This document shows positions 5,767-53,559 of a DNA stretch of 64,000 nt, in pieces. The notes beneath the pieces are model-generated. The model was not told where the DNA came from. It made no database searches and saw only the letters and a program-made list of their open reading frames with translations. The stretch's first letter is position 1, and each line of letters starts with the position of its first letter. The stretch covers positions 2,650 through 66,649 of IMG/VR virus record IMGVR_UViG_3300036791_000400. One strand, given 5' to 3'. Source of the DNA: a virus. The translations under genes and the position numbers were made by a program.

Positions 5767-5986
5767 CGACGATCAGGACTACGGCAAGAAGGGCGACACC
5801 AAGCACATGGGCACCGAGAAGCTGGAGATGATCTCGGCCGGCGGCTCGGGGTCCAGCGGCGGCACCGGCCCCACCGGTTCCAAGCGCGACTATCCCAAGG
5901 GCAAAGGGGTCAAGCACGACACTGACTGGAACCCGCAGAAGATGCCGGCGAGCACCTACGGCATCAACGGCGTGAAGTGTGATTAG
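5759..5986 (+). CDS. Small Gly/Lys-rich protein
   Basis: Overlaps portal stop, AGGGG SD. Confidence 0.7.
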   Translation: MASDDQDYGKKGDTKHMGTEKLEMISAGGSGSSGGTGPTGSKRDYPKGKGVKHDTDWNPQKMPASTYGINGVKCD

Positions 5987-24586: not shown

Positions 24587-26362
24587 ATGGCTGGCTGGGT
24601 CACCAAGGATTTCGGCGGCGAGATACCACGGCAGAACTCGCGCCTGCTGCCGCCCCAGATGGCTGAGGAGGCAGTCAACGTGGACCTCGGCTCGGGCATG
24701 CTGACCGGGTTGCCGCAGCCGCAGTTCGTGGTCGACCTGACCTCGGTGGCGAGCTACCCGGATGTGCGCAAGGCGTACCGGATACCGGGACCGACCCCGG
24801 ACCAGCCCGACGTGTGGGCGCCCCTGCCCAGCGAATTCTCCTCGGTGTGCCGTTCGCCGTTGGCCAACGACACCATGCACCGGTTCTACTGGACCAACCC
24901 GCCGGGGTCTCCGTTGGCGGGGGCGTGGTGGAGCACCTATGAGTGGATCGCCGCCGGCAATACGCCGCCGCCCTACAATATCGGCTTCATCGCGCCCGAC
25001 CCGCGCATCGAACTCTGGGTGACCACCAGCGGGGGCACCACCGACGGATCGCTGCCGTATGTGGCGCGCTCGTATTGTTTCACTTATATCGACATTTATG
25101 GTTCGGAGAGTTCACCCACGCTGCCGTCGGCGGTGATCGACGGACCACCGGACGCGACCTGGACCCTGAACGGTCTGCAAACCACGCCGCCCGGATCACC
25201 CTCCGGCAAGAACTATCCCGCGATCGCCTCGATGCGGATATATCGTACTATTACCGGGGCGAGCACCGGCGCACAGTTCTACATGATCCAGGATATCCCG
25301 TTCGGATCGAGCACGTTCGTGGACACGATACCTGATACCACGATCGTCAACAATAATTTATTACAGAGCGCCAGCTGGGCGTCCCCGCCGGACGGGCTCG
25401 ACGGTCTCGTATCCATGACCGGCGGGATGCTGATCGGGTTCACCGCCAACACGGTGCATTTCTGTGAACCGGACCGGCCGCACGCATGGCCCGCCGGCTA
25501 CGACCAGAGCCTGATGTATCCCATCGTGGGGTTCGCGATCTGGCAACAGGCGCTGATTGTATTAACCAAGGGCTTCCCGTCCTCGGGCACCGGCAACTCG
25601 CCGTCGCAGTTCACCTTCGCGCAGATACAAGTACCTGAGCCGTGCATCTCGCGCGGCTCGATCATCACCGATCTGTTCGGGGTGTATTACGCATCCCAGA
25701 ACGGCCTGGTGATGTTGAATTATTTCGGCATGCAGAACCAGACGCTTTCCAACATGACCAAGAACATCTGGCTGACCGAGTATCAGGCCGAGCACATCAT
25801 CGCGTGTCGGCACCGTGCCCAGTATCTGGCGATCAACGGCACCGGGATGGGGTTCCTGATCGACTACACCGAGCAGCGCATGGGGATCATGCACGTCTCT
25901 CCGATGGTCGATACAGTGTCGGTGTGGAACGATATCTACACCGGCAACGCCTACATGATCGCCAACAACGTGGTGTATCTGTGGGACAGTCCCGACACCC
26001 CGCCGCTGAACTATCGCTGGCGCTCCAAGCAGTTCTATCTGCCGGCACCCGTATCATTGGGCGCGTGCCAGATATCGCTGGAGCCCAGTGTATCCTTTCC
26101 GGCGCCACCACCGTCGGCCCCGCCGCCGGAACATGGTGATCCCTCGGTCGAGCTGCCGCCCGGGGTGAACGCACTGTTCCGGCTGTTCGTGGGACCCGAT
26201 GGCGAAAATCTGATCCTCACCCAGTACCTGACCCAGCCCCGGTGTATCTTCCGGCTGCCGTCGGGCCGCAAGGCGTTCAACTGGCAGTTCGAGATCGTCG
26301 CCAACTGTGCGGTGCACTCGGTCGAGCTGGCCTCCACCATGCGCGAACTGAAGGGCATCTGA
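24587..26362 (+). CDS. Tail nozzle / tubular protein B
   Basis: FGGEIPR start, F.EP..PHAWP..Y, PC.SRGSI, YAS..GLV, WRSK.F motifs. Confidence 0.78.
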   Translation: MAGWVTKDFGGEIPRQNSRLLPPQMAEEAVNVDLGSGMLTGLPQPQFVVDLTSVASYPDVRKAYRIPGPTPDQPDVWAPLPSEFSSVCRSPLANDTMHRFYWTNPPGSPLAGAWWSTYEWIAAGNTPPPYNIGFIAPDPRIELWVTTSGGTTDGSLPYVARSYCFTYIDIYGSESSPTLPSAVIDGPPDATWTLNGLQTTPPGSPSGKNYPAIASMRIYRTITGASTGAQFYMIQDIPFGSSTFVDTIPDTTIVNNNLLQSASWASPPDGLDGLVSMTGGMLIGFTANTVHFCEPDRPHAWPAGYDQSLMYPIVGFAIWQQALIVLTKGFPSSGTGNSPSQFTFAQIQVPEPCISRGSIITDLFGVYYASQNGLVMLNYFGMQNQTLSNMTKNIWLTEYQAEHIIACRHRAQYLAINGTGMGFLIDYTEQRMGIMHVSPMVDTVSVWNDIYTGNAYMIANNVVYLWDSPDTPPLNYRWRSKQFYLPAPVSLGACQISLEPSVSFPAPPPSAPPPEHGDPSVELPPGVNALFRLFVGPDGENLILTQYLTQPRCIFRLPSGRKAFNWQFEIVANCAVHSVELASTMRELKGI

Positions 26363-26363
26363 C

Positions 26364-26582
26364 ATGCCGCAAACCACGTTCAGCAATCCCAACGTGCCGC
26401 ACATCCAGCGGCCACTGGCTGAGCTGGGCTCGCTGGCCACGGTGACCGAGAGCCTGCGTCAGGGCGTCGAAAGCCTGGGTGGCCACCGTGGCGGACCCCT
26501 GGACCGCGCGGTGACGTTGCAGGACCTGGTGATACTCGGGCTGACCACCGAGGCACAGATCATGGCCGTGCTGAAGAACTGA
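26364..26582 (+). CDS. Small tail-associated protein
   Basis: LR..VE.L.G.RG..LDRAVT..DL..LGL pattern after nozzle gene. Confidence 0.7.
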   Translation: MPQTTFSNPNVPHIQRPLAELGSLATVTESLRQGVESLGGHRGGPLDRAVTLQDLVILGLTTEAQIMAVLKN

Positions 26583-27043
26583 TGGCCGCCACCATTCACA
26601 TCAACGAGGAGCGCGACGGCGATTGGGTGATGACCCGCGTCGGCGGCGTGTTCAACGACAAGACCGACCACGTGATCGCGCTGCATCGCGACGGCCGCAC
26701 CTGTGGCGGCGTGGTGTTCACCGGCTATCTGGGCGCGTCCATCATGCTCCACATGGCGGGCAACGAGACCAACTGGGCGACACCCGATTTTCTCTGGATG
26801 GTGTTCGACTACGGGTTCAACCAGCTGGGCTGTCGCAAGCTGGTGGGCCTGGTGCCGGCGACCAACCACAGGGCACTCTCGGTGGATATCAGGCTGGGGT
26901 TCACCATCGAAGCCAGGCTCGCTGACATGATGACGGACGGGTCTGACCTGCTGATCCTCAGCATGACCAAGTCAGCGTGCAAGTGGCTGCGCTATGCCCC
27001 GCGTCACTACCGTAGTAATCTTGCGAACCTGGAGGTCAGATAA
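26582..27043 (+). CDS. GNAT-family acetyltransferase-like protein
   Basis: FDY.FNQLGC.KL.GLV...N.RAL....RLGF..E motif. Confidence 0.85.
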   Translation: MAATIHINEERDGDWVMTRVGGVFNDKTDHVIALHRDGRTCGGVVFTGYLGASIMLHMAGNETNWATPDFLWMVFDYGFNQLGCRKLVGLVPATNHRALSVDIRLGFTIEARLADMMTDGSDLLILSMTKSACKWLRYAPRHYRSNLANLEVR

Positions 27044-27464
27044 AATGGGCATGGTAGGCTTTAAGCGCATCAGACCGCTTCTTGCGGGTCTCCGCGCTCT
27101 GTGGCCGACTGTGCTGCTCCGCATTGTTGGTCGCCGCCCGGCAAATGCGCACGTTGCCGACGGCGTATGGCCCGGTGTCGCCAAACCTGGCCATGACGTA
27201 CTGGTTAGGGTTGCTGCCGCGCTGTGTCCATTTCCGGCTTCGTTGCCAAAGTCCCCACCACTCGTCGAACGTCAGCAAAAAATCGATACTCCGACGACGA
27301 GCGCGGTCTTGGTGGCGCATGTAAGCATTGCGCTCTGGGTTTTGCGCACGCCATTTCTGTACCGCTTTGTTGGTATGCTTTTGCCGCTCGCCGGGGTGGG
27401 CGTCATACCAAGCCTGTTTGCTCTCAGGGTGCGCCGCACGCCATTTTTCCCATCCACTGGCCAT
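27036..27464 (-). CDS. HNH-like homing endonuclease, antisense to the late operon
   Basis: Paralogue of 19139-19708: FLLTFDEWWGLWQ, QY.MAR.GD.GPY.VGNV; NUMOD3-like QSAETRKKRS; ORF open to 27500. Confidence 0.75.
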   Translation of the reverse strand: MASGWEKWRAAHPESKQAWYDAHPGERQKHTNKAVQKWRAQNPERNAYMRHQDRARRRSIDFLLTFDEWWGLWQRSRKWTQRGSNPNQYVMARFGDTGPYAVGNVRICRAATNNAEQHSRPQSAETRKKRSDALKAYHAHFI

Positions 27465-27486
27465 ACTCAACTTATAGGAGGATAGA

Positions 27487-28314
27487 TTGGGGGGTGGCAA
27501 GGGCGGGGCACCCGCAGCACCTAACTATGCACCGATCGCCGCATCTGACATGCAGGCGGCGCAGCTGGACGCGCAGACCTCGAAGGACCAGCTCGACTGG
27601 GCGAAGCAGCAATACGCCGACCAGGCGCCCTATACCAAGGCGTTCATGCAGTCGGCCGCCGATGCGCAGGACGCAGAGACCCAGTCGGCCAAAGAGGCGC
27701 AGGATTACTACAAGAGCACCTACCAGCCGATCGAGACCCAGTTCGCTCAGCAGGCGCAGGGCTGGAACACCCCGGCGCGTGCCGCCTCGGAAGCAGGCCG
27801 GGCCGAGGCGGATGTGGCGTCTTCGTTCGACCAGCAGCGCACCGCCGCATTGTCGTCACTGGAGGGCTACGGCATCGACCCGAGCCAGACCCGCTACGGC
27901 GCGCTTGATCTGGGTACCAGGATATCCCAGGCCGCCGCCACGGCATCGGCGGGCACTCAGTCAAGGCTCAATACCGAGGCCACCGGGCTCGCCCTGGAGG
28001 GCGAGGCGATCAACACCGGCCGGGGCTACCCCAGTCAGGTGGCGCAGTCGTACTCGACCGCCACCGGCTCTGGTTCGCAGGGCGTCACGGCGGGGCTGAA
28101 CACCAGTTCAACCTATGGCAACATGATGGGCTCGCCGACCCAGTGGTCTGGGTTGGCGAACCAGTCGCTGGCCGGTGCCGCCAACACCATGAACATGGGC
28201 TTCAACAACCAGATGGCCGGATTTAATGCCAACGCCGGGATCGCGGCGAACCAGTCCTCGGGCATCGGCGGGTTGGTCGGTGCCGGCATCGTAGCCGGGG
28301 GCATCGCGATATGA
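27487..28314 (+). CDS. Internal virion (ejection) protein
   Basis: MGGGKGGAPAAPNY start (TTG with AGGAGG SD), Ala/Gln/Gly-rich, hydrophobic C-terminus. Confidence 0.75.
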   Translation: MGGGKGGAPAAPNYAPIAASDMQAAQLDAQTSKDQLDWAKQQYADQAPYTKAFMQSAADAQDAETQSAKEAQDYYKSTYQPIETQFAQQAQGWNTPARAASEAGRAEADVASSFDQQRTAALSSLEGYGIDPSQTRYGALDLGTRISQAAATASAGTQSRLNTEATGLALEGEAINTGRGYPSQVAQSYSTATGSGSQGVTAGLNTSSTYGNMMGSPTQWSGLANQSLAGAANTMNMGFNNQMAGFNANAGIAANQSSGIGGLVGAGIVAGGIAI

Positions 28315-28976
28315 TCGATCAGACCCTGCTGACCCAGGTATCGCAGGTGGCGCTGGAGCGCGGCGTGCGGCTGTTGCAGGGCTATCGGCTGGCCGATACT
28401 GACTACGATCACATGATGGTCCTGCTGGGCATGCTGGGGCCGCAGCTGGGCGCACGCATCCTGGACGTGGGTTCCGGGTTCGGCGAAGCGGCGCACCTGC
28501 TGCGGGTCATGCGGCCCGATCTGAAATTCATGCTGCTCAACAACAATCGGTTCCAGCTCGCCCACACACCCGAGGACCTGTCCAGCTGGTACGGGGATAT
28601 GCACGACGTGCCGTTCAGCAACGGCAGCTTCGACGTGGCGATGTTCCTGTACTCGCTGTGTCATGCCGACGATCTGGGCCAGGTGCTGCGCGAGGCGGCG
28701 CGGGTGACGCGCCCCGGCGGCATGCTGTTCGTGTATGACTATGTGCGCGACGCCGGCGATGATCTCCTGGCTGAACGGATGCTGTGTTCGCACTTCTTTA
28801 CCGCGTCGGTGCTACGCATCGCGCTTGACGACGCGGGCTGGAACGCGCCGGTGTTCTATCGGTTGACCACCGGCAACGACGCGGTGTTCCGTCGCATGGT
28901 CGGCGACGATGTGGAGAACTACCAACGCATTATGCGCGACCTCACTCCGGTAGTGATCAAGGCGTGGCGGGAATGA
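28311..28976 (+). CDS. Class I SAM-dependent methyltransferase
   Basis: ILDVGSGFG, GDMHDVPFSNGSFD, EAARVTRPGG. Confidence 0.9.
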   Translation: MIDQTLLTQVSQVALERGVRLLQGYRLADTDYDHMMVLLGMLGPQLGARILDVGSGFGEAAHLLRVMRPDLKFMLLNNNRFQLAHTPEDLSSWYGDMHDVPFSNGSFDVAMFLYSLCHADDLGQVLREAARVTRPGGMLFVYDYVRDAGDDLLAERMLCSHFFTASVLRIALDDAGWNAPVFYRLTTGNDAVFRRMVGDDVENYQRIMRDLTPVVIKAWRE

Positions 28977-29707
28977 GTTTGTTCGAACCCCTGGAGCGTC
29001 ATGACAAGATCGCGTTGAGCTTCAGCGGGGGTAAGGACAGCCTTGCCTGCGTGCATCTGTTCCGCGACCACCTCGATCGGATTACGATCTACCACAACGA
29101 CACGGGTGACCTGCTCCCCGAGATGATGGAGAGCGTCGCGAGGGTAGAAGCCTTTGCGCCGCACTTTGTGCGCATCAACTCCAACGTCTCCGAGTTCATC
29201 GCCAAATGGGGCTTGCCCACTGACCTATTACCCTACAGCGCGCATCCGATCGGACGCGCGATGGGTGAGGGCAAGAACCCTCTGGTGTCGCGCTACGATT
29301 GCTGCTGGTCGAATTTGATGTTCCCGCTCTATGCCCGGGTGCTTGACGACAAGAACACCCTGCTCATACGGGGCACCAAGTCAGCCGACATGAACGTGCT
29401 GCCGATCACCTCAGGCGAGGTCACCGACGGGATCGAGATTTACTATCCGATCCAGAGCTGGACCAACGACGACGTGATGATCTACCTGCGGCGCAACCAG
29501 ATACCCATTCCCCGGCTCTACAAATACATGACCAACTCGCCCGAGTGCGCACGCTGCTCGGCGTGGTGGGGCGAGGGTCGCGCCGCCTATCTCAGGCAGT
29601 TTCACCCGGACATCTGGGCCGACTACGACAAGCGCTTGCAGGTGGTGATCGACGAGGTGGCGCTGCCGTTGGCCAATCTCCGTCGTGAGGCAGGAGTGAC
29701 CGAATAA
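28973..29707 (+). CDS. PAPS/APS-reductase-family PP-loop protein with Fe-S motif
   Basis: SFSGGKDS, DTG..LPE, CC pair, PI.SW...DV..YL, ECARC. Confidence 0.85.
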   Translation: MSLFEPLERHDKIALSFSGGKDSLACVHLFRDHLDRITIYHNDTGDLLPEMMESVARVEAFAPHFVRINSNVSEFIAKWGLPTDLLPYSAHPIGRAMGEGKNPLVSRYDCCWSNLMFPLYARVLDDKNTLLIRGTKSADMNVLPITSGEVTDGIEIYYPIQSWTNDDVMIYLRRNQIPIPRLYKYMTNSPECARCSAWWGEGRAAYLRQFHPDIWADYDKRLQVVIDEVALPLANLRREAGVTE

Positions 29708-32700
29708 TGTTCCTCTTGGGGTCGTTTACTTCGGGTCTGTTCAACGGCGCCTCGCAGGCTGCGTCGCTCTACAACATGTACCAGGGCATCGCGGCCGGTG
29801 CGGCGACCGAGGACGCGATGAAGCAGGACCAGCCGACGCCCAAGGTGACCAGCGAACCCGATGCAACCACACCTGATACGGGCGCGGACACACCTGGTGG
29901 CGGCGGTGCAGGCGGCGCGGGTGGTGGCGGGGGCACGGGTGCCGACGAGCGGTTCAATCCGGAACCGAGCAAGCGCACCGTGGTCAAACCGACCACAGGC
30001 GAAGACACCAGACGCAGCCCGGCGGACCCGAACTACAAACCGACCACCGAGGTAACGCCCCCGGGAGCATTACCCAGACCGGCGACCACCGATCCGTATC
30101 GCGTGCCGGCGGCGACCGGCGTGCCGGAGACAACACCCCCTCCAACCACACCGCCAACCTCGGGCGTGCCAAGTGCGGAGGACCAGTCGGCCCAGACCGG
30201 GCTGCCGCTCCCCAGCTCGCCGGCACCCAGGGTCGGCGCGCTGCCGCTCTCCGGCGCGCCATTCAACGCGGCAGGTGTGTCAGGGCCTCCGGGCACGCCC
30301 TCCGGTCCGGCGCCCAACCCGCAGGCTGGCAGGAACTCGTTCACCGACGGGCTTGGTCAGCTCTGGCAGAAAGTCACCGGCCCGAGTGCCGGGTTCACCC
30401 AGCCGCCGGCCGCGCCCTACACCCCGCCGCCGCCCTCGAATACCGTACAACCGGGCGGCTATTTCGGTGGTGGCGCCGGCGATGTGGGAGGCGGGGTTCG
30501 ACGCCCCGTGGTAATACCGCCGCCCCAGCCACCAGCATCGGTTGGCGCACCGCCTGGTGGTGCGCCTGGTGTCGGTGGCGGCGTACCGGTGGCTCAGGAC
30601 CAGCAGCCGGGCTGGGCGGGCCGCGCACTGGTTGCGCAGGCACAGGGTGCCGCGCCGTCCGCACCGGCGGGACCGACCGGACAGTTCGCCGGACCGGGCG
30701 CACCCCCGGCTCAGGACACGGGCACCAGCGCGGGCGATGTCATCCGGGGCGCGCTGGGGATTGGCTCGGCCCAGGCCAAAGAGCCGGGGATTACTACGGG
30801 AGAGACGGCACCAGCCACGGGTGTGTCGGACCGTACCGCGATCCCCACGTCCTATCCCACCGCAGGCGTGCAACCAGCCAAGCCCTCACCGACCGCGCCG
30901 CCCACCCAGGCGCCGGCACCGGTCGCCACCGAGGCCAAGGTCGCACCGGGCCAGACCACACCCTCGAAATCATCCGAGCCGGTCACCCCGGCGTATGCGC
31001 CGCACGTGGACCCGAGCGCGCTGGAGCATTTCAAGCAGACCAACCCGCAACTGGCGCAGTGGATGGTCGACAGCGCGGCGAAGTCAGGCGGCACGGTTAC
31101 CGCCGAACAGCTGGCTCAGACCAAACTGCGCGAGAGCGGCGATAAGATGGGCTATCCGATCGGCGATGGTGGTGCCTCCAAGGGCATCATGCAGATGGGC
31201 GATACCGAGGCGCGCACGGTCGACCCGCAGGGCAGGCTCGACCGGCATGATCCCAGGCAGGCGATCGAATTATCCGCGCAGTATTATCGCTGGCTGGCCG
31301 AGGGTGATCGCACCCGTGGTGGGTTCGGCTCCAACAGCGTACTGACCAACTACGCGTATATGCGCGGTGTCGGCGCGGCGAACGACGTGATGGCGGCCGA
31401 GCGGATGCACCCCGGCAGCGGCATGGACTGGATCAAGCGGGCCAACCCGCAGGCCGCCGGGTTCCTCGACAAGATGTATGGCGGTGATGGTTCGGGCAAC
31501 AACAAGGTGGGATTGCACTTCCCACCGACCGGTCAGGGCAACGGCCAGTACTCCATGTCCGCGATGGTGACCGCAGCACACACCGGCGGTCCCGATGCGT
31601 TGATGAAATACATCTTCACTTCGGGGCCGGTGACGGGCACCACCGACAAGTGGCGTTCCGCGCAGGCGCAGGTCATCTCACACATGATCTCGACCGGGAA
31701 CTATGCCTCGATCGGCGCGGTGACCGACTGGTTCAGCCAGCAGGCGCACCAGGGCGCGCTGTCACACATGGCGGCGGGCTATGAGGCGCTGCAATCGGGC
31801 GACATGCAGACCGCGTCGCAGCAGCTGGCGATGGCGCACGCATTCTTCCCCGACGGCACGTTCGCCAAGTTCGGCGTCTCGGGCGACGGCAAAACTCTGA
31901 TGGGCCAGCAGTTCGACGAGGGCACCATGCAGCCGATCGGGCAGCCGATGCGGATCACCCCCGATACGCTGGCGGCGCACATGATGCACCTGAATCACCC
32001 CGGCAACTTCATTGACGCGTTGCAGAAATTCCAGCTGACCAACTCTGAGCTGTCACTGAACAAGGCCAAGGAGACCTATTTCAGCGGGCGCAACGAGACT
32101 TCGTTGGAGAAGACCCAGTTAAGTCTCGCAGACAGGCAGCGTCATGACGACGCAGTCGAGGCTGGGAAAGACGCTGATCGCAGGTCGCGCGAAGGGATCG
32201 CGGCGCAACGTCAGGAAGGCGCAGCGGACCGTACGGCACGTTCACATGACATCAAGGACAACGAGGCGGACAAATACTACAGCGACCCGGACAACAAGCC
32301 GGCCAACCCCGACGGCTCGAAGATGAGCGACGACCGGTTCGCCACGCAGGGCCAGATCGAACACGAGCTGCGCCGCCAGCCACAGGCATCGGGCGAGCTG
32401 ATGTCTACACCCCTGGCGCGCAACGCGGCGCAGGCGATCGTGCAGGGCCGCCTGTCGCCCAAGCAGCAGCTCGACCAGAACAACAAGCCCACGGGTTACA
32501 CCGACTGGGTTGACAAGGACGGCGCCGCACGTGCCACCACCGACGACAAGACCGCTAACTACTTCATGCATCTGGCGGGCGCCAACCCGAAACGCGCGCC
32601 GGGCCAGCAGGGCGCGCTGAATATCACCAGCCCGGTCGGTGCCGGCGGCGGATCGCCAACTGCGGCGATGCAGGGCATGGGCATGAACATGACCGGGCAG

Positions 32701-32733
32701 CCGTCGCAGGCGCTGCAAACCGCAACGGCCTGA
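29707..32733 (+). CDS. Ejection protein with lytic-transglycosylase-like domain
   Basis: RESG...GASKGIMQ...P.QAI...A.Y...YAYMRG lysozyme-fold motifs after a long Pro/Gly/Thr region. Confidence 0.72.
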   Translation: MFLLGSFTSGLFNGASQAASLYNMYQGIAAGAATEDAMKQDQPTPKVTSEPDATTPDTGADTPGGGGAGGAGGGGGTGADERFNPEPSKRTVVKPTTGEDTRRSPADPNYKPTTEVTPPGALPRPATTDPYRVPAATGVPETTPPPTTPPTSGVPSAEDQSAQTGLPLPSSPAPRVGALPLSGAPFNAAGVSGPPGTPSGPAPNPQAGRNSFTDGLGQLWQKVTGPSAGFTQPPAAPYTPPPPSNTVQPGGYFGGGAGDVGGGVRRPVVIPPPQPPASVGAPPGGAPGVGGGVPVAQDQQPGWAGRALVAQAQGAAPSAPAGPTGQFAGPGAPPAQDTGTSAGDVIRGALGIGSAQAKEPGITTGETAPATGVSDRTAIPTSYPTAGVQPAKPSPTAPPTQAPAPVATEAKVAPGQTTPSKSSEPVTPAYAPHVDPSALEHFKQTNPQLAQWMVDSAAKSGGTVTAEQLAQTKLRESGDKMGYPIGDGGASKGIMQMGDTEARTVDPQGRLDRHDPRQAIELSAQYYRWLAEGDRTRGGFGSNSVLTNYAYMRGVGAANDVMAAERMHPGSGMDWIKRANPQAAGFLDKMYGGDGSGNNKVGLHFPPTGQGNGQYSMSAMVTAAHTGGPDALMKYIFTSGPVTGTTDKWRSAQAQVISHMISTGNYASIGAVTDWFSQQAHQGALSHMAAGYEALQSGDMQTASQQLAMAHAFFPDGTFAKFGVSGDGKTLMGQQFDEGTMQPIGQPMRITPDTLAAHMMHLNHPGNFIDALQKFQLTNSELSLNKAKETYFSGRNETSLEKTQLSLADRQRHDDAVEAGKDADRRSREGIAAQRQEGAADRTARSHDIKDNEADKYYSDPDNKPANPDGSKMSDDRFATQGQIEHELRRQPQASGELMSTPLARNAAQAIVQGRLSPKQQLDQNNKPTGYTDWVDKDGAARATTDDKTANYFMHLAGANPKRAPGQQGALNITSPVGAGGGSPTAAMQGMGMNMTGQPSQALQTATA

Positions 32734-32736
32734 GCG

Positions 32737-35700
32737 ATGCCGCTCGACATCAACGCCGACCCGAACGATCCCGATGTACTGACCAAGCAGCTCGACGACC
32801 AGCGTTCACAGGCGCTGCGCCCGTCGAGCCTGCCGTATGCCCAGACCGACACGCCCTCCCCGCCGACCGGTCAGCCGACCGACGAGGTGCCGCCCACACC
32901 AACAGCAGCACCACCGGCTCAGGGCATTACGACCACCACGCCGGCAGCGCCGACAAGGCACGGGCGTCCGGCGCCACCAGCGCCGGGTAGTTATCATTAC
33001 GCCGACGACGCACAAGGTGCGGGCACCGGCGGGACCACAGCCGGCTGGACTTTCCCGCCGGATATTCCCGACGCGCCGCCACCGTCCAAGTCCGGCCTGG
33101 GCCGCGACATGGTGCGTTCGTTCTGGCAAGGCGCGGTCGCGATGGGCGACGGTGCGGTGCAGGCCGCGCACGCAGTGACCAACCTGATCACGACCAACCC
33201 CGACGTGAACAAGGCGTTCCAGTCCGCGCATCAGTACATGACCAGCTCGATCGAGAGCAGCGTCGATGCGATGTCGCCGGCCGACAGGCAGGCGATGCGG
33301 GCCAAGTTCACCGCACTCTGGTCAGGTGAGAAGGACCCCGAAGGCAACCTGATCCCGAGCCCGTTCGAGGTCGGGTTCGGCCGCTACGTGGCGCTCAACG
33401 CGGCGAACATGCTGCCGTCCTGGGGGCCGATGCTGATCCCCGGCGGGGTGCTCGCCAAGGTGGCGATCTCGGGCATCACGATGGGCGCGCCGAGCGCGGG
33501 CGAGATGTACACCCGGCTCTACGACGGCGTGATGAAGGCGCCGCAGTCAGAGATGGAGCAGTCGCCGGCGTACACGGCGGCGATCAAGGCGGGCCAGTCC
33601 GACGAACAGGCGCGGCTGGAGGTGCTGCGCGGCGCGGCGATCCTCTCGGTCGGCACCGCCGGTGCGCTCGGTACTGCGGCCGGTGCCGGGGTAGGCGGCA
33701 TCCTGGCCAGGGGTGCGCTGGGTGGTGGGGAGCGGATAGCATCCCGGATGGGCATCGGTGCTGCCGAGGCCGGTGCCACGATGGGGGTACAGGGCGCCGG
33801 CACCGAACTGGCGGGCCAGTACGGCGAGAAACGGGCGGGCATCCGGCAGAACTACGATATCGGTCAGGTCATCGCCGAGGGCGTGTCGCAGGGTTTGACC
33901 GGCGCGGCACTCGGTGCCGTCGGCGGGGTGTTCCACAGGCCCACAGCAGCCGAGGTCAGAGAGGAAGAACGCCCGCCAGCGCCAGGAGTATCATCGGATA
34001 CGTCGGCGGCGCTCACCGAGGCGCTGACACCCAGCACACCTGAACCGGGTGGTCCCACCACGACGGCTGATATGTCGGGCATCCCGGGTTATTCTCCCTC
34101 GGGCGTCGAGACCATCCCACGTCGGCCCATGCCAGCCCCACCAGCACCGCCGGTGGCGGCGGGCGAGCCCACGGGTATCCCAGGGTGGTCGCCAGAGGGA
34201 CCGGCGCCTACAGGCTCCACAGCCGCTCCAGCCAGTGCGCCGCCCACGGCACCAGAAACCACCCCAGGAGTACCCCCCACACCATCAGCAGCGCCGCGAC
34301 CAACGCCCCAAGCAGCACCCCAAGCAGCACCGGAAGTACGACCCTCCGCAGGAATGAAGGCCGGCGAGCTGCGCGACGCGCTGACCCAGATGACGGGTCG
34401 GGCGCCGCCGGTGAAGACCAGCGTGGGCGATCTTCGCACGGCCTACGACCGCGAGGTGGCGCGTCAGGCATCATCCACGGTAGCATCGGACGTGACCGGC
34501 AGGCAGGTCGGGTCACAAGCACCCGGCGGTGACGGAGGTCCGGAACCCGAGGCCGTCGCCGGGAAGGCAGCCCCTTCGTCGGAGGTCGATCAACCGGTAG
34601 GCTCACTCCCGGTAGTGACGCCTTCGACGGAGGCGGCGAGGGTCGAGGCTGAGACCCAGGCCGAACCCGGCCCAGATATCACCGTTGCGCCCACCGAGGC
34701 AGTTTCCTCCCAGGTGGCGCAGGGGGAGACCGCGCCCGCAGGTCGGGAGGCAGCGCCCACTCCCAAGGGCGAAGCTGCTGAGGACGCGGTCGAACCCGCC
34801 AAGCCTAAGATTACACCCACCAAGGGCGACACCATCGCCGGCTACAACGTCGACCACGACAAGGTAACCGGGCAGGTCCACGCGGTTGCCAAAGACGGGG
34901 TCATCGCGGTTCGTGACAGCAACGGCGAACTGCACGCGGTCACGCCTGAAAATGTCCTGGAGCACACGCCCAAGCCCCTCACCAAGGGCGAACAACTGCG
35001 GGCCGAGCGCGTCGCCAAGCGCGCCGCTGAGAAAGCCAAGCTCACAGGTGAGAAGATCGAACCCGCTACCGCCCACGTCGCCGGCGAGGAGCAGGAGGTC
35101 GAGACCAAGGCTCCCGAGCGCGAGCCGCGCAGCCTGCCCGAGGCGCGTCAGGACGTGCGTGACGCCCTGGAAATGGCGCAGCGGGACATCCAGCCGGTCA
35201 AGGGAGTGAAGGCATCCCAGGTAGCGCAGAAGGCGGCGCAGGAGCTGGGCGAGCGGTTCGCCAAGGCGAAGACCGAGGGCGACCTGCACGACGCGATCGC
35301 GCACTGGGGGTCGGATAACCCAAACCCATTACCCCTGAGTACCACGCGCCGCTCGGCGCTGGCCGACCGCATGCTCAAGCTGCTCACCGGCAAGGGTCTC
35401 GACGAATACCGTACCGGCGAGACCCCCGAGGCACGGGCTGCGCGGGTCGCGGCCGAGGCACGCGAGGAGATCGCGCGCCAGCCCAAGGCGGTCGAGGACG
35501 AGCGCACGCAGCGCAAGACGGCACTTGAGGAAGCGCACGCGCGTGACGCCGATGTCGAGCGCGAGGTCGCGCATGAGGTCGGCGAAGCAGCGGCACCTGA
35601 AGCAGAGGCTGAAGTCACTCCGGTAGTAAAAGAGCCAGAGGCGGCGACTAAGGCCAAGACCACCAGCAAGGCACGCGAGGCCGAGCGGCTACTGAAGGAT

Positions 35701-38700
35701 GTGCTGGACGGTAAGAAGACCCCGGTGCAGGCCAGCGAGGAATACGGCCTGCCGAAGAAGGGCGCCAAGCCACGCGGCGAGGGGCTGCGCACGTTCCTGG
35801 AATATCTGGTCAACGAGGCCAAGCGCGCCGAGAGCGAGGGTGAGCGCGAGCGCATCATCGCGAAGTCCGAGGCGCAGAACAAAGCCTCCGAGCGAGCGGG
35901 CGGCGAGCATCCCAACAAGAAGAAGGCGCGCACCGAGACCCTGCAACGGGAACTACAGCGTGTCGGTCCCGAGTACGCCGAGAAGATACGCGGCTATGCG
36001 CGCGAGATCGCTGATCCGATCCGGAAGGCCGCTGATGAAGCGGCGGCAGTCAAGCAGGCAGCGGCCGAGAAGATCGCGGCGAAGCTGGGTAAGGGTCCGC
36101 AGGAAATGGCGGCGCCTGAGCGGGCGACACCGGATGGTATCGGTCCCAGCGCGTCACGCTTTGTACAAATGGCGCGCGATCCGCGCATCGGTGCCAATCT
36201 GGTGCGGCATCTGAAAGCTGCGGCGGCGGTCGGCCGGACACTCAGTCTCCATGATGTGCTGCGGTTCGTGCGGGATGATCCGTTGGTGCGTGCCGAAGCC
36301 AGACCGCTGCACGCACTGGCGATGAGACTGCTGAGCAGTCGACTATTGCCTGATGTGCCAGTGCTGACCCCGGAGCAAGGGCGGGCGCGCGGCCTGGTTG
36401 ATGACCAGCGCATGGCGCGTTTCCGATCCGGTAATCTATACGGATATTCGGCGATGGAACACTCCACGCCGCACATCGTACTCAACCCAGATACGTCGTT
36501 TGGCCATATCGAGACGGCGTTGCATGAGGCCATGCACGCGGTGACTTCGCGTTACATCGAACATCTGCGCGAGACCGCTCCCAACCACCCGGATTTACAG
36601 GTGCTGCGCGCGATCAAGCGTGAGCTGAATGATCAGAAAGACCTCGCTTATATGACCGGGCGGATCAGCGGGGACCAGCTCGACAGGATTAACTACGCGT
36701 TGAAGGATGAGCACGAGCTGCATACCGCGCTGATGACCAGCCCCGAGGTGCAAGCCTTCGCCGCTGGTGGGCAAGCTTCTGACGGATTACGGGCTGAGCT
36801 GTCCAGGCTGGGCTTCCCACCGCGTGAACAGGGTCGGTCTGTGTGGCGCTACTTCACCGACTGGGTACGACGCGCGCTGGGAATGGACAAGCCAGCGACG
36901 GTTAGCGAGTACACGCTGCTCGACCATTTGCTGCGACCGATGCAGGAGATCACCGAACGCGGCGGTGAATACGGTCGCTCGATGGATGAACTCAGACAAT
37001 TCCAGCGCGAGTTCGAGCACGACGCACCAAGAGACCCCGAGCTGCGTGCCCAGGCCGAGCCCCTGTATCGCACCGCGACCTCCAGCATGGGCGATCGCGT
37101 GCGCGACACCGCCGATCGTGCCCTCGAACACCTCCCCGACGCGCACACCATGGGCGACAAGGGGCAACAGTTCCTGTTGAACGGCGCCACCACCGACGGG
37201 ATCGTGTCGCGCTATAAGCCTTTAATACCGTCGTTGGAAACCTGGCGGAACGCCCGCGAGGCGATCGCCCGGGTGGGCAAGGTGTTCTCAGATAAGTTCG
37301 CCGACGCCACCTACAAGCTCACCAACGGCTACGCTCAGATCAAAGACCGCAACGCGCTGGGCCAGCTGATGAACGACGCGACGATCGCCGAGGCCAAGTT
37401 GGGCTCGGGGGTGGCAGCCGACGCCAACGCGCACCTGACCACGCCGGCGCAGAAGGCAGCCCTCGCAGACCTACAGGCCCGCTACAACGGACTGTCCGAC
37501 AAGGCCAAGGCGTTCTACGACAACGCGCGCGACATGTACCAGCAATGGCACACCACCAAGCGCGATGCCGAGAAGCGGTCACTGCTCAATACCTGGTGGC
37601 CGGACGCTAGCGACATCGACCGGAAGGCGTTTCTCAAAGCTGCTACGTCGAAGACCGCGATGGAGAAGTATATCGGGTCCGAAATCTCGCCCAAGTTGGG
37701 TCGCGCGATCGGTAAAATTTACAGCCAGGGCTTCGTTCGGGGAGACTATTTCCCGCTGCGCCGGCACGGCGATTATGTGGTGCGCTACGGCGACCGCGAC
37801 GATCCCACCAAGTATGGCGTGGAGATGTTCGAGAAGCGCCGCGATGCCGAGGCGCGGCGCAAGGAGTTGCTGGCGCGCGGTGACGTAGACGACGTGTACC
37901 AGGTCTCCCAGCGTTCCCGCAGCTCGATCCGCGACATCGCACCCGACCATCCGGCGGTGGCTGAACTGACCGACGCCATGATCGCACGCGGCACGCCCAC
38001 TGCCGAGGCGCACGCGGTGCGTGACCAGCTCCAGAGCATACTCCTGGATCACGCGACGCGCTCCGAGGTTGCGCGCGCCAACATGCGGCGCAAGGGCGTG
38101 AAGGGTGCATCGATCGATCAGGGACGGGTACTGGCCGATGAGTTCCTCAACATGCAGGGCTCGCTCGGGCACCTCGAACACGGTGCTGCGGTGGCTCAGG
38201 CACGCAGTGCGATGCGCCGCGAGGTCGAGGACCTCGAAGGGCCGCGTGCGGTGCAGTCGGGCATGGCGGTCACCGGTCGCCAGGTACTGCGCGAAGCCGA
38301 GAAACGCGACGCCACGATCGCCGATCCGAACAGCCTGATGGCATCGCTGGCCCGCAAGGCCAACGTGTTCTCGTTCGCTCACGCCCTGATGTCGCCCTCG
38401 CACATGATCACGGCGAGCATGGAAGCGCACACAAACTCCATGGCGATCCTGGGGGCGCGGCATAACTGGGGCCGCGCGGGGCTGGCGCTCACCACCGCCA
38501 TGAGACAAGCGGGTCCGACGATGTTCACTACCGGAGTGAGGAAGACCCTCGCAGCGGTCAGAGGCGAGCTGAAGGCGACCGACTGGAACATGTCGGACCT
38601 CCTGCGTGACCGGTTCATCAAGGCGGGTGCCAATCGTGCGGGCATGAACATGTTGTTCAAGCGTCTGGAAGACGCCGGCCTGATCGACCACACCATGCTC

Positions 38701-39951
38701 AAGGACATGCACGATCAGGCGCTGGCCACCGGCGGCACGCGCACGGGCAAGACCTGGAACTACTTCATGAACCTGTCGCAGGTATCTGCGCACTCGGTCG
38801 ATGCGATGAACAAGGGGGTGATCGCCAAAGCCGCGTTCGATCTGGAGTTCCGCAAGACCGGAGATATCAACAAGGCGGTCGACTACGCGGTCGAGACTGC
38901 GCGCACCGCGATGCCCAACTATAATCTGGCGAACAAGCCGCGCATCGCCACCGCTAACGGGTTCCTCGGTCAGCTTGGTTCGCCGCTGATGCAGTTCAAA
39001 ATGTACGGCATGCACATGTACACCATCATGTCGAACATGGCGAAGGTGGGCATGGGGTCCGGCGAGAAGGCAAGGGAAGCGCGCTACGCGTTCGCCGGGC
39101 TCTTGGCTACGCACGCCATGAGTGCCGGCGTGCTAACCCTGATCGCCGACCCGCTGCGCTATATCGGCGGCGCGTATGACGCGCTGACCGGCGCGACCAA
39201 GCCACACGATCGCGAGGCGGATGTCCGGGGCTGGCTGTCCGACGTGATGGGACCCACCGCCGGCGAAGCGTTCGCGCGCGGCCTGCCCCACCTGCTCGGG
39301 TTCGATGTGCATTCGCGCGTCGGGCTGGGCAACCTGCTGGAAGTTCCCGAGCTGCCGTCGTTCGACAGCTCGGGCGTCGGCAAGCTGATGCTCGGGCTGA
39401 CCACCGGGGCCACCGGCGAGGGCATCCAGAAGCTGGTCGACGGGTTCCACAAAGCGATGGCCGGCGACGTGATCGGCGGGGTGCAGGACGCGATCCCACG
39501 ACCGATCCGCGATGCGATGAAGGCGGGCGATCTGGCCAGCAAGGGCGTGCAGACCCAGCAGGGACGCACGATCTTACCGGCGTCCAGGATATCGGGATGG
39601 GACGTGGCACTCCAGGCGGCAGGCTTCCAGCCGTCACGGGTAACCGAGGCGCGCGAGGGCAGCTACGCCGTGCAGCAGGCACGCGACGAGGCCAAGGCGC
39701 AGCATGACCAGCTGGTCAAAGCATGGGTCAGCGCCGACCCGGCGGACCGGCCCGCGATCATGTCGCAGATACGCGACTACACCAGCGACCCGCTGCACAA
39801 GGGTTTCCCGATCAACCATGACACCCTGCTCAAGGCGCTCCAGGCCAGGACCAAGGCCGGCAGGATACCGCCCGAGGCGTTCGGGCTCACGCTGCCCAAG
39901 CGAGGCGCCGCTGCACTCGAACAGGCGGGAAGGTTCGCGAACTACCAATGA
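32737..39951 (+). CDS. Giant internal virion protein (2404 aa) with HExxH and PLxRFG-like regions
   Basis: LHEAMHA motif, YFPLRRHGDY motif, last gene of ejection cluster. Confidence 0.82.
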   Translation: MPLDINADPNDPDVLTKQLDDQRSQALRPSSLPYAQTDTPSPPTGQPTDEVPPTPTAAPPAQGITTTTPAAPTRHGRPAPPAPGSYHYADDAQGAGTGGTTAGWTFPPDIPDAPPPSKSGLGRDMVRSFWQGAVAMGDGAVQAAHAVTNLITTNPDVNKAFQSAHQYMTSSIESSVDAMSPADRQAMRAKFTALWSGEKDPEGNLIPSPFEVGFGRYVALNAANMLPSWGPMLIPGGVLAKVAISGITMGAPSAGEMYTRLYDGVMKAPQSEMEQSPAYTAAIKAGQSDEQARLEVLRGAAILSVGTAGALGTAAGAGVGGILARGALGGGERIASRMGIGAAEAGATMGVQGAGTELAGQYGEKRAGIRQNYDIGQVIAEGVSQGLTGAALGAVGGVFHRPTAAEVREEERPPAPGVSSDTSAALTEALTPSTPEPGGPTTTADMSGIPGYSPSGVETIPRRPMPAPPAPPVAAGEPTGIPGWSPEGPAPTGSTAAPASAPPTAPETTPGVPPTPSAAPRPTPQAAPQAAPEVRPSAGMKAGELRDALTQMTGRAPPVKTSVGDLRTAYDREVARQASSTVASDVTGRQVGSQAPGGDGGPEPEAVAGKAAPSSEVDQPVGSLPVVTPSTEAARVEAETQAEPGPDITVAPTEAVSSQVAQGETAPAGREAAPTPKGEAAEDAVEPAKPKITPTKGDTIAGYNVDHDKVTGQVHAVAKDGVIAVRDSNGELHAVTPENVLEHTPKPLTKGEQLRAERVAKRAAEKAKLTGEKIEPATAHVAGEEQEVETKAPEREPRSLPEARQDVRDALEMAQRDIQPVKGVKASQVAQKAAQELGERFAKAKTEGDLHDAIAHWGSDNPNPLPLSTTRRSALADRMLKLLTGKGLDEYRTGETPEARAARVAAEAREEIARQPKAVEDERTQRKTALEEAHARDADVEREVAHEVGEAAAPEAEAEVTPVVKEPEAATKAKTTSKAREAERLLKDVLDGKKTPVQASEEYGLPKKGAKPRGEGLRTFLEYLVNEAKRAESEGERERIIAKSEAQNKASERAGGEHPNKKKARTETLQRELQRVGPEYAEKIRGYAREIADPIRKAADEAAAVKQAAAEKIAAKLGKGPQEMAAPERATPDGIGPSASRFVQMARDPRIGANLVRHLKAAAAVGRTLSLHDVLRFVRDDPLVRAEARPLHALAMRLLSSRLLPDVPVLTPEQGRARGLVDDQRMARFRSGNLYGYSAMEHSTPHIVLNPDTSFGHIETALHEAMHAVTSRYIEHLRETAPNHPDLQVLRAIKRELNDQKDLAYMTGRISGDQLDRINYALKDEHELHTALMTSPEVQAFAAGGQASDGLRAELSRLGFPPREQGRSVWRYFTDWVRRALGMDKPATVSEYTLLDHLLRPMQEITERGGEYGRSMDELRQFQREFEHDAPRDPELRAQAEPLYRTATSSMGDRVRDTADRALEHLPDAHTMGDKGQQFLLNGATTDGIVSRYKPLIPSLETWRNAREAIARVGKVFSDKFADATYKLTNGYAQIKDRNALGQLMNDATIAEAKLGSGVAADANAHLTTPAQKAALADLQARYNGLSDKAKAFYDNARDMYQQWHTTKRDAEKRSLLNTWWPDASDIDRKAFLKAATSKTAMEKYIGSEISPKLGRAIGKIYSQGFVRGDYFPLRRHGDYVVRYGDRDDPTKYGVEMFEKRRDAEARRKELLARGDVDDVYQVSQRSRSSIRDIAPDHPAVAELTDAMIARGTPTAEAHAVRDQLQSILLDHATRSEVARANMRRKGVKGASIDQGRVLADEFLNMQGSLGHLEHGAAVAQARSAMRREVEDLEGPRAVQSGMAVTGRQVLREAEKRDATIADPNSLMASLARKANVFSFAHALMSPSHMITASMEAHTNSMAILGARHNWGRAGLALTTAMRQAGPTMFTTGVRKTLAAVRGELKATDWNMSDLLRDRFIKAGANRAGMNMLFKRLEDAGLIDHTMLKDMHDQALATGGTRTGKTWNYFMNLSQVSAHSVDAMNKGVIAKAAFDLEFRKTGDINKAVDYAVETARTAMPNYNLANKPRIATANGFLGQLGSPLMQFKMYGMHMYTIMSNMAKVGMGSGEKAREARYAFAGLLATHAMSAGVLTLIADPLRYIGGAYDALTGATKPHDREADVRGWLSDVMGPTAGEAFARGLPHLLGFDVHSRVGLGNLLEVPELPSFDSSGVGKLMLGLTTGATGEGIQKLVDGFHKAMAGDVIGGVQDAIPRPIRDAMKAGDLASKGVQTQQGRTILPASRISGWDVALQAAGFQPSRVTEAREGSYAVQQARDEAKAQHDQLVKAWVSADPADRPAIMSQIRDYTSDPLHKGFPINHDTLLKALQARTKAGRIPPEAFGLTLPKRGAAALEQAGRFANYQ

Positions 39952-53283: not shown

Positions 53284-53559
53284 TCAGGGCGCCTGGAGGC
53301 AGAGCCAGGCGATCGCGTGTTCAGTCAGCCACCACTCCTCGGGCACGCGCACGCGTTTCGGCGAGCCGCGATCATTCGTTATGAACGCGACCTCGATGTC
53401 CTTCCAGTATGCACGCTTGTAGGCCCACGCTACCTTGGATCGCAGTCCTTCGGGCAACGCGTGTATCAGCTCGTCTTCGAGCGCGCAGTTGCGATCCAGG
53501 TCGTGGTTGTATGCCTGGGCGTTGATGTGATCCACCACGTCCTCCAGTTCGTGTCCCAT
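53284..53559 (-). CDS. Hypothetical protein
   Basis: MGHELEDV start coupled to the VWA gene stop. Confidence 0.6.
   Translation of the reverse strand: MGHELEDVVDHINAQAYNHDLDRNCALEDELIHALPEGLRSKVAWAYKRAYWKDIEVAFITNDRGSPKRVRVPEEWWLTEHAIAWLCLQAP

Follow-up and report, generated by a model that had tools for sequence, protein, structure and literature searches.

We analyzed a 64,000-nucleotide stretch of viral DNA (the window), which spans positions 2650–66649 of the 66,649-bp IMG/VR virus record IMGVR_UViG_3300036791_000400 (CheckV completeness 100%), and focused on a group of enzyme genes lying among genes for ejection proteins. The group comprises a GNAT-type N-acyltransferase, a virion protein called vs275, a class I S-adenosylmethionine (SAM) methyltransferase and a protein resembling phosphoadenosine phosphosulfate (PAPS) reductase, hereafter the PAPS-like protein. 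Judged by its residues, the PAPS-like protein cannot act as a sulfonucleotide reductase of the CysH type and is predicted to be an ATP pyrophosphatase carrying a 4Fe-4S site of the adenosine phosphosulfate (APS) reductase type. The overall explanation that we favor, at a probability of about 0.38, is that the genes form two separate late-expressed modules within the ejection-protein operon.

In the core module, the GNAT is normally translationally coupled to the following vs275 and would acylate this protein on an amine, with the conserved lysine of a Gly-Lys/PxPD motif as the likeliest site; a polyamine-like amine is another possible target. The accessory module would combine the PAPS-like protein, a PP-loop ATP pyrophosphatase bearing a four-cysteine site, with the methyltransferase: the former would activate its substrate by adenylation with ATP, possibly swapping an oxygen for sulfur at the Fe-S site, and the latter, where present, would methylate the product. 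The substrate would be something loaded into the virion, and we judged an ejection protein or peptide to be a likelier candidate than DNA or a metabolite. A preliminary description of the window, made from its sequence, had placed all three enzymes in one pathway; that proposal did not hold up, as the GNAT often occurs without a PAPS-like gene and only the methyltransferase and the PAPS-like gene are demonstrably coupled.

The annotation "PAPS reductase / cysH" is attached to hundreds of phage genes, which are then counted among the auxiliary metabolic genes for sulfur. For the PAPS-like family, this assignment fails on the defining residues: the family consists of predicted PP-loop/Fe-S proteins that have a dedicated methyltransferase partner and are kept in an operon of injected proteins. 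A known substrate would add a virion-protein modification or a DNA-protection chemistry, or would explain a part of the host range of the Burkholderia and Ralstonia phages considered for therapy and biocontrol. Culturable phages, Bcep22 and JC1 among them, carry both the GNAT and the PAPS-like gene and provide a cheap and clean experimental system.

The PAPS-like protein and its methyltransferase

The PAPS-like gene (28973–29707, plus strand; ATG start at 28973, with a GTG alternative at 28964) encodes a protein of 244 amino acids that belongs to the Pfam family PAPS_reduct (PF01507; E = 1.2e-14, 55.2 bits against a cutoff of 22.5). Its AlphaFold2 (AF2) model, with a predicted local distance difference test (pLDDT) score of 95.3, was closest in fold to CysH and APS reductases, which reached VIA Z values of 15.7–16.1 (6vpu, 16.1; 2goy, 15.8) and a root-mean-square deviation of 2.6–3.1 over 174–186 residues; Foldseek gave E = 1.8e-8 against 2goy. 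The best folds, APS reductases of P. aeruginosa (2goy) and M. tuberculosis (7lhr) and CysH (6vpu and 1sur), are 15–20% identical to the window protein. Further neighbors included CysD (Z 14.4), GMP synthase and FAD synthase (both 13.2), NcsA (12.5), TilS (12.1), LarE (11.8) and Cap9 (9.5).

We aligned the window protein with 95 homologues from viral contigs and studied the conservation of the active-site residues among these 96 sequences. The SGGKDS loop and the CC...CxxC pattern that had been noticed earlier are both present and nearly invariant: the PP-loop residues S, G, G, D and S are identical in 96/96 sequences, the fourth position being K in 91 and R in 5, and all four cysteines of CC and CxxC are found in 96/96. 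The two cysteine pairs align with the Fe-S cysteines of the M. tuberculosis APS reductase 7lhr. The window protein differs from the APS reductases and CysH in three respects. Its only cysteines are at positions 26, 110, 111, 192 and 195, and no cysteine follows the CxxC in it or in 92 of the 96 sequences (four have one); the residues after CC are N114-L115 in place of the R-K of 7lhr, N being kept in 79/96; and an intact, ATP-type SFSGGKDS loop, absent from CysH, stands where Vibrio CysH has SSSFGIQA. Sulfonucleotide reductases require a catalytic cysteine at the C terminus, in an ECGLH-type tail, and since the PAPS-like protein has none, CysH function is excluded. The curated models agreed with this: none of the CysH, APS-reductase, CysD and DndC cutoffs was reached, the NCBIfam scores of 15–45 bits comparing with cutoffs of 154–1086 (TIGR00434, 17.1 against 165.1; TIGR02055, 20.4 against 235.3; NF002537, 33 against 154). 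The earlier suggestion that the protein does not serve plain sulfate assimilation is thus upheld. The combination of ATP pyrophosphatase and Fe-S chemistry is common to DndC/SspD, TtuA/NcsA and the LarE-type sulfur insertases.

The family is large, with 277 clusters at 50% identity (E ≤ 1e-30) and, by a word-based search, 452 clusters at 90% identity. The nearest cellular homologues are multidomain proteins of about 640 amino acids from methanogens, and at 22–28% identity these archaeal proteins were considered too distant to serve as a functional guide.

The methyltransferase METHYLTRANSFERASE, encoded by the gene immediately upstream (28311–28976, plus strand; 221 amino acids), is the partner of the PAPS-like enzyme. 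It matches Methyltransf_11 (E = 1.9e-14, 54.5 bits against a cutoff of 21.2) and contains motif I as ILDVGSGFG. The AF2 model (pLDDT 96.1) was most similar to a sarcosine/dimethylglycine N-methyltransferase (SDMT), SpnF, phosphoethanolamine N-methyltransferases, C-methyltransferases of geranyl and farnesyl pyrophosphate (GPP/FPP) and RebM, with VIA Z values of 23.5–21.9 (23.5 for 2o57), while protein N-terminal methyltransferases reached 18.4–18.8 and DNA methyltransferases were absent from the top 50 structural neighbors. The window protein lacks both [DNS]PP[YFWH] and the PC dipeptide, and among 44 homologues the former was found in 1/44 and the latter in 3/44. The motif scan and the modeled structure agree with the preliminary description in supporting a predicted small-molecule or protein type of methyltransferase and not a DNA type.

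The evidence for the pairing of the two enzymes comes from gene neighborhoods and fusions. In a set of 5.8 billion proteins, the methyltransferase has 45 close relatives (43–57% identity), after which the similarity falls off as a cliff. When viral loci were collected around the methyltransferase, a PAPS-like gene was located at most 800 nt downstream in 9/10 cases at E ≤ 1e-40, in 27/40 at E ≤ 1e-15 and in 27/51 at E ≤ 1e-4; starting from the PAPS-like gene, 9/80 loci contained the methyltransferase. The two domains are encoded by a single open reading frame (ORF) in 11 distinct viral contigs, and two loci (L089 and L163) have the reversed order, with the PAPS-like part preceding the methyltransferase. 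All of the longer methyltransferase relatives (5/5) are fusions, four with PF01507 and one named PAPS reductase by its source. We took a census of fusions among the best 150 of the 277 representatives of the PAPS-like family (E ≤ 1e-30) and counted 109 standalone proteins, 22 methyltransferase–PAPS fusions, 3 PAPS–methyltransferase fusions and 14 proteins with another N-terminal domain. The fused architecture is already contained in phrog_424, "PAPS reductase," in which the methyltransferase matches positions 5–93 and the PAPS-like protein positions 156–366 of 460.

In a quick IQ-TREE tree of 105 rows, for which a careful search was left unfinished and in which one locus (L003) was wrongly labeled as "none" due to an extra ORF between its genes, the methyltransferase association was scattered: the state "separate methyltransferase" changed at least six times on well-supported branches, and the fused proteins formed two clades, each with SH-aLRT of 100. 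Fusion in both orders and recurrent adjacency provide strong evidence for the methyltransferase and the PAPS-like enzyme sharing one substrate or pathway, and show the two to be a functional pair. Among cultured phages, a search with the methyltransferase gave one weak match, none of the 43 records with a PAPS-like gene carries it, and the fused query was covered to at least 80% in 0/43 of them. In L003, the closest complete relative, the methyltransferase and the PAPS-like gene are separated by an ORF of about 200 amino acids without a family match (5276–5974).

The acyltransferase, vs275 and the conserved slot

The GNAT gene (26582–27043, plus strand; 153 amino acids) matches phrog_4470, "acyl-CoA N-acyltransferase" (9.9e-37). 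The window protein has no Pfam match of its own, and its membership in the GNAT superfamily is given by the PHROG match and by matches of homologue profiles. Among 20 GNAT homologues, Pfam Acetyltransf_4, _3 and _8 matched 4, 3 and 1, respectively. Compared with the PDB, the profile of these 20 was closest to SpeG and the spermidine/diamine N-acetyltransferases (1.7e-6), followed by aminoglycoside and PseH enzymes, with protein N-alpha-acetyltransferases near E 0.02–0.09.

The virion protein vs275 (27487–28314, plus strand) matches phrog_8003, "virion structural protein" (7.7e-58), and gp70 of Bcep22 (2e-23); in the protein atlas, P22 gp7 and T7 gp14 were only weak leads, at 0.90. It has an isoelectric point (pI) of 4.45, no cysteines and a glycine-rich, hydrophobic C-terminal tail. 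The start codon is a TTG preceded 7 nt upstream by AGGAGG, and the homologue in L003 has an ATG at the same position, which supports the longer form of vs275 with the Gly-Lys motif. In the protein atlas, vs275 is present only from residue 22, read as M, and lacks the part encoded by 27487–27552 of the window, indicating that the source gene call missed the TTG start.

The N terminus of vs275 contains a conserved Gly-Lys motif followed by PxPD(Y/P). In the window protein, APxxPxY comes after the Gly-Lys motif. The MGGGKGG start of the gene at 27487, pointed out earlier as an example of a modifiable N terminus, turned out not to be universal: the Gly-Lys motif is not always terminal, some relatives having short leaders such as MTLE before GGK, and Bcep22 gp70 is annotated with about 55 additional residues before it. 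Among 29 loci with at least 1.5 kb of sequence upstream of vs275, those with a GNAT had [GAS]K[GSPKR] in 22/24 cases and a PxPD-type motif in 23/24, while those without a GNAT missed the lysine motif in 4/5 cases and the PxPD-type motif in 5/5. The five GNAT-less loci form one clade in the tree, and the association thus amounts to approximately one evolutionary event. We considered N-terminal extensions of vs275 in the GNAT-less loci and rejected them, as they look like noncoding read-through. Directly before the point at which their vs275 homologue is predicted to start, loci L019, L056, L099 and L100 share a conserved in-frame stretch, EFDFLPE.AF, which may be a longer N terminus, a leader or a conserved regulatory sequence.

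A complex prediction for the GNAT and residues 1–70 of vs275 gave "weak support," with a score of 0.37 and a best control of 0.00; the pLDDT of the partner was at least 44, and the agreement between runs covered at least 40% of contacts. Of 80 solved complexes, 58 reach the mark for support, as do 2 of 110 mismatches; at scores of 0.60 or below, only 7 of the 80 reach it, together with both mismatches. The GNAT and vs275 genes are adjacent or overlapping in relatives, and an action of the GNAT on vs275 is a reasonable but unproven proposal.

Cultured phages with matching gene runs are found among the Bcep22-like phages (Lessievirus and Gervaisevirus): gp69–gp75 of Bcep22, gp63–gp69 of JC1 and ORF77–72 of RPZH6. 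Bcep22 and RPZH6 share the order virion protein, small ORF, acyl-CoA N-acyltransferase, virion protein, PAPS-reductase-like protein, virion protein and DarB-like giant protein. A tblastn search with the PAPS-like protein retrieved 43 cultured phage records, 31 from Ralstonia, 10 from Burkholderia, 1 from Aeromonas and 1 without a name, at 41–44% identity, as in the Bcep22-like phages, or lower. The GNAT and a vs275-type protein also occur in phages without a PAPS-like gene, for example in Pseudomonas phage Skulduggery and Rhizobium phage RHph_TM27A, making them the core pair and the PAPS-like gene an accessory in a fixed slot.

In IMG/VR contigs, we identified 95 distinct PAPS-like genes, 87 of which had at least 2.5 kb of upstream sequence. 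By phmmer, 57/87 had a GNAT on the same strand and no more than 3.5 kb upstream, with a median spacing of 1315 nt, and a profile hidden Markov model placed a GNAT upstream of five further PAPS-like genes. The position of the genes within the ejection operon is conserved and not accidental, recurring in Bcep22, RPZH6, the IMG/VR loci and also L008. In L008, whose flanking proteins are assigned to different PHROGs (phrog_3287, phrog_4287 "DNA ejection protein" and, on the other side, an endolysin-like protein of 742 amino acids), the methyltransferase/PAPS-like pair comes after the phrog_4287 protein and is still located between ejection proteins. These comparisons show a cassette that has retained its place among the ejection-protein genes even in deeply diverged phages. 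Prophage-like copies of the PAPS-like gene were observed in Alphaproteobacteria (47–53% identity) and Burkholderiales. Literature searches returned no paper on the methyltransferase/PAPS-like pairing or on the placement in the ejection operon, and no passage on phage PAPS-like proteins was found in Rakesh et al. 2024.

Candidate substrates and competing explanations

For the substrate of the accessory module, we tentatively place a virion or ejection protein or peptide first, DNA in a counter-restriction role second as a doubtful candidate and a small molecule third as an unlikely one, with CysH chemistry hardly credible. The preference for protein over DNA is weak, and draws on the acidic pI of the PAPS-like protein (5.7) and the methyltransferase (5.2), their lack of any additional domain, the partners fused to the PAPS-like domain and the precedent of Cap9.

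The 14 representatives in the fusion census with another N-terminal domain are heterogeneous. Four look like CxxCxxCC proteins, and the three tested (3/3) scored above the PF03692 cutoff. Five, designated group A, share a domain with invariant Cys21, His102, His113 and D/N114, with a spacing like that of C39 double-glycine peptidases; two, designated group C, have an HExxH domain recognized by motif only, and a PDB search with it gave no match. One protein carries half of a Cys/Met pyridoxal phosphate (PLP) enzyme, although at 335 amino acids and with a partial PAPS domain this fusion may be an artifact. Recognized nucleic-acid domains were not seen among the identifiable partners in the best 150 representatives. 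These partners may be taken as leads, not as proof, toward a protein or peptide substrate. The group A domain (in P0195, P0197, P0201, P0211 and P0316, and at 4953–5417 of L265) measures about 125–160 amino acids with the pattern Cys...His...His-(Asp/Asn)-Pro, and in six cultured phages, including Pseudomonas phage Noxifer and Mycobacterium phage Jolie2, it is annotated as "hypothetical protein" throughout.

Lasso-peptide biosynthesis pairs a protease with a PP-loop enzyme. The lasso-peptide B/C proteins and Cap9, the QueC-like protein of type IV CBASS, share the PP-loop with the PAPS-like protein and are ATP-dependent enzymes that modify the N terminus of a protein or peptide. Cap9 was the best sequence match in the PDB (9nto_B, E = 0.0037; 5.5e-7 with profile A5), although it belongs to the QueC family PF06508 and not to PAPS_reduct, the similarity is confined to the PP-loop and the CxxC segment at the C terminus, and we saw no TGT-like or 7-deazaguanine genes. 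The Cap9 preprint (10.1101/2025.04.06.647259) shows a PP-loop enzyme to be able to modify a protein N terminus.

Several observations speak against the two-module explanation with a virion substrate. Only 43 cultured phage records have the PAPS-like gene, as compared with 73 for the GNAT, and we found no feature of vs275 that tracks the presence of the PAPS-like gene. The structural neighbors of the methyltransferase and the GNAT are small-molecule enzymes. Close homologues of the PAPS-like protein occur in other or unrecognized contexts, such as after a GcrA-like ORF in L004 and in L157–L159. The slot also takes unrelated insertions, among them an HNH-like ORF in the window and the extra ORF in L003, and its conservation may thus reflect shared ancestry of a permissive site and not function. 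The likeness of group A to C39 peptidases is no more than a lead: alignment with 21 C39 domains by hhalign gave a probability of 5.2% and E = 0.0074, against 0.15–0.49 for the controls, and there was no Pfam or PDB match; moreover, the group A domain is a standalone phage ORF without cassette neighbors in 79/80 viral loci. In the mass spectrometry of CsCl-purified JC1 virions, as given in a passage of PMC9144972, gp64 (the vs275 homologue), gp67, gp68 and gp69 were detected, and the GNAT (gp63) and the PAPS-like protein (gp65) were not; this fits enzymes acting in the cell and names no target. Finally, PMC13551039 and PMC10945359 refer to Piel et al. 2022 for a vibriophage PAPS reductase that counters Dnd, which points to DNA.

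That citation belongs to the rival that survives best, counter-restriction, which we nevertheless regard as rather unlikely. It makes the PAPS-like protein a minimal ATP pyrophosphatase of the DndC/SspD type that places sulfur, as phosphorothioate or in another mark, on progeny DNA before packaging, with sulfur-relay and DNA-handling partners supplied by the host, the methyltransferase adding a second mark or a cap, and the protection of the ejected genome working alongside the giant protein in the DarB position. The PAPS_reduct superfamily, the SGGKDS loop and the expected Cys-ligated Fe-S chemistry are those of SspD, BrxP and DndC, for which PADLOC gave subthreshold matches (SspD, 1.5e-6 and 26.2 bits over residues 18–78 only; BrxP, 1e-5; DndC, 5e-3), and a passage of a BREX paper (PMC12839542) calls the cysteine dyad, here accompanied by CxxC, characteristic of DndC. 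In Bcep22 and RPZH6, the PAPS-like gene lies near DarB-like antirestriction genes, and its accessory distribution is typical of antidefense genes. Phage P1 provides a parallel in its Dar system, in which enzymes and giant proteins are encoded with head and ejection genes and serve the genome on its entry into the cell; the comparison comes from the JC1 paper, a passage of which also states that homologues of the P1 accessory proteins have not been reported in Lessieviruses (PMC9144972). However, the DndC model TIGR03183 scored 15.9 bits against a cutoff of 290.4, and the acidic protein of 244 amino acids has no DNA-binding domain and about half the expected length (the DndC and SspD profiles have 447–481 and 277 positions). 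The DndA and DndD partners were not found in the phage genome: the complete 66,649-bp record has no match to cysteine desulfurase (PF00266) or DndD (TIGR03185), and a search of it for DndE (PF08870) was uninformative, as the control genomes were equally without matches; such partners may also come from the host. The methyltransferase is not of the DNA type, and fusions to recognized nucleic-acid domains are missing from the best 150 representatives. The PAPS-like protein has no homologue among Vibrio phages either (0/48 records at E ≤ 1), which implies that the Dnd precedent concerns another subfamily.

Next in plausibility, and unlikely, is a small-molecule chemistry. The pair would make or destroy a metabolite, which might be a compound activated by a nucleotide or one that is thiolated and methylated, a cofactor, a derivative of a polyamine or a host immune signal, the GNAT would be a SpeG-like polyamine acetyltransferase, and the position in the operon would provide the late timing only. 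It is favored by the structural comparisons, in which all of the best methyltransferase neighbors act on small molecules, spermidine/diamine N-acetyltransferases come nearest to the GNAT profile and the PAPS-like fold lies near CysD, FAD synthase and GMP synthase, enzymes with small-molecule substrates, and by one fusion to the half of a Cys/Met PLP enzyme. Against this, fold neighbors do not fix a substrate, the PLP fusion is a single protein and possibly artifactual, and it offers no reason why a metabolic cassette should stay in one slot among the ejection genes in phages whose flanking proteins have diverged into other PHROGs.

A more specific form of the protein reading, which we consider improbable as a whole, is a maturation of virion proteins resembling that of ribosomally synthesized and posttranslationally modified peptides (RiPPs). 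The GNAT would acylate the Gly-Lys motif of vs275, the PP-loop/4Fe-4S enzyme would adenylate and perhaps thiolate a carboxyl or carbonyl group of an ejection protein or peptide, and the methyltransferase would cap the product, with a CxxCxxCC or protease-like domain replacing the methyltransferase elsewhere. Such a pathway would be widespread in podophages, where it has so far been annotated as cysH. 

The last alternative, an ordinary auxiliary metabolic gene in which a CysH PAPS reductase boosts the sulfate assimilation of the host and the GNAT and the methyltransferase are unrelated morons, has in its favor the closest fold, the GenBank product names "cysH: phosphoadenosine phosphosulfate reductase," the treatment of JC1 gp63 and gp65 as nutrient-acquisition morons in a passage of PMC9144972 and that of another PAPS reductase as a sulfate-assimilation moron in a passage of a Burkholderia prophage paper (PMC2920897), and is rendered very improbable by the missing C-terminal cysteine, the replaced R-K, the ATP-type PP-loop, the low scores in curated models and the repeated fusion to a methyltransferase.

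Gene order and genome context

The source virus is a Bcep22-like podophage, and the window covers most of its 66.6-kb genome; a blastn search of the region against cultured phages gave zero matches. The left end of the genome carries the terminase and portal genes, and the virion operon extends on the plus strand to about 40 kb. A replication block on the minus strand encodes a primase/helicase, a helicase, an exonuclease, a family A polymerase, an ATPase and a large HNH endonuclease. The last of these (53559–54938, minus strand; phrog_1314, 8.4e-87) adjoins the DNA polymerase.

In the late operon, the order is internal virion protein, 72-amino-acid ORF, GNAT, vs275, methyltransferase, PAPS-like protein, a 1008-amino-acid protein and a giant protein of 2404 amino acids. 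The internal virion protein (24587–26362, plus strand; 591 amino acids; phrog_511, 4.1e-98) is also found upstream of the GNAT in relatives and serves as the upstream anchor of the module. The small conserved ORF that follows (26364–26582, plus strand; 72 amino acids) has homologues in the same place in L003, L009, L010, L012 and L018. Its stop codon overlaps the GNAT start in a TGATG at 26580–26584, which adds to the overlaps listed in the preliminary description and confirmed by direct reading along with the ORF positions: ATGA at 28311–28314 and 28973–28976 and TAATG at 29705–29709. Between 24 and 33 kb, 0 promoter-like sites were found against 2.0 expected, and terminator-like sites were absent from 26.1–31.5 kb; with neither kind of site within the cassette, the plus-strand genes look like a single transcription unit.

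The GNAT had been described as lying just upstream, which is correct for its position but overlooked a minus-strand, HNH-endonuclease-like ORF between it and vs275 (27036–27464 or 27036–27500; 142–154 amino acids, the probable ATG start at 27464 giving 142). The ORF matches phrog_16521 (2.6e-17) and the HNH family phrog_3118 (7e-6), its GC content at third codon positions is 0.66 as compared with 0.81–0.85 in the adjoining genes, and the gap between the GNAT and vs275 is 443 nt in the window but −8 to 108 nt in 12 relatives. It is an addition of the window relative to the Bcep22-like phages and looks like a window-specific, free-standing insertion of the homing-endonuclease type that splits the GNAT/vs275 pair.

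The enzyme genes had also been described as standing between two internal virion genes. This was confirmed for vs275 by its matches to phrog_8003 and gp70; the 1008-amino-acid protein on the other side (29707–32733, plus strand) is only a positional analogue of the second ejection or virion protein, as Pfam and PHROG searches gave no match and the similarity to Bcep22 gp74 is marginal (E = 0.003). Homologues of it follow the PAPS-like gene at its 3' side in L003, L009, L012 and L018. The giant protein (32737–39951, plus strand) occupies the position of the DarB-like proteins of Bcep22 (gp75) and RPZH6, and its only Pfam match is LPD39 (4.9e-8). At 2404 amino acids, it is shorter than the giants of JC1 and Bcep22, which have 4500–4600 and include regions for lytic transglycosylase (LT), methylase and helicase; PMC9144972 describes the DarB-like protein of JC1 as 4515 amino acids long, with an LT-like region beside those of the methylase and helicase. 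In the window phage, these activities may have been lost or moved elsewhere.

In L004, a PAPS-like gene with 60% identity follows an ORF of 273 amino acids with a Pfam match to GcrA (8.7e-10), the two spanning positions 21–1586; the locus has no recognizable GNAT or vs275, and the GcrA match may be a low-complexity effect.

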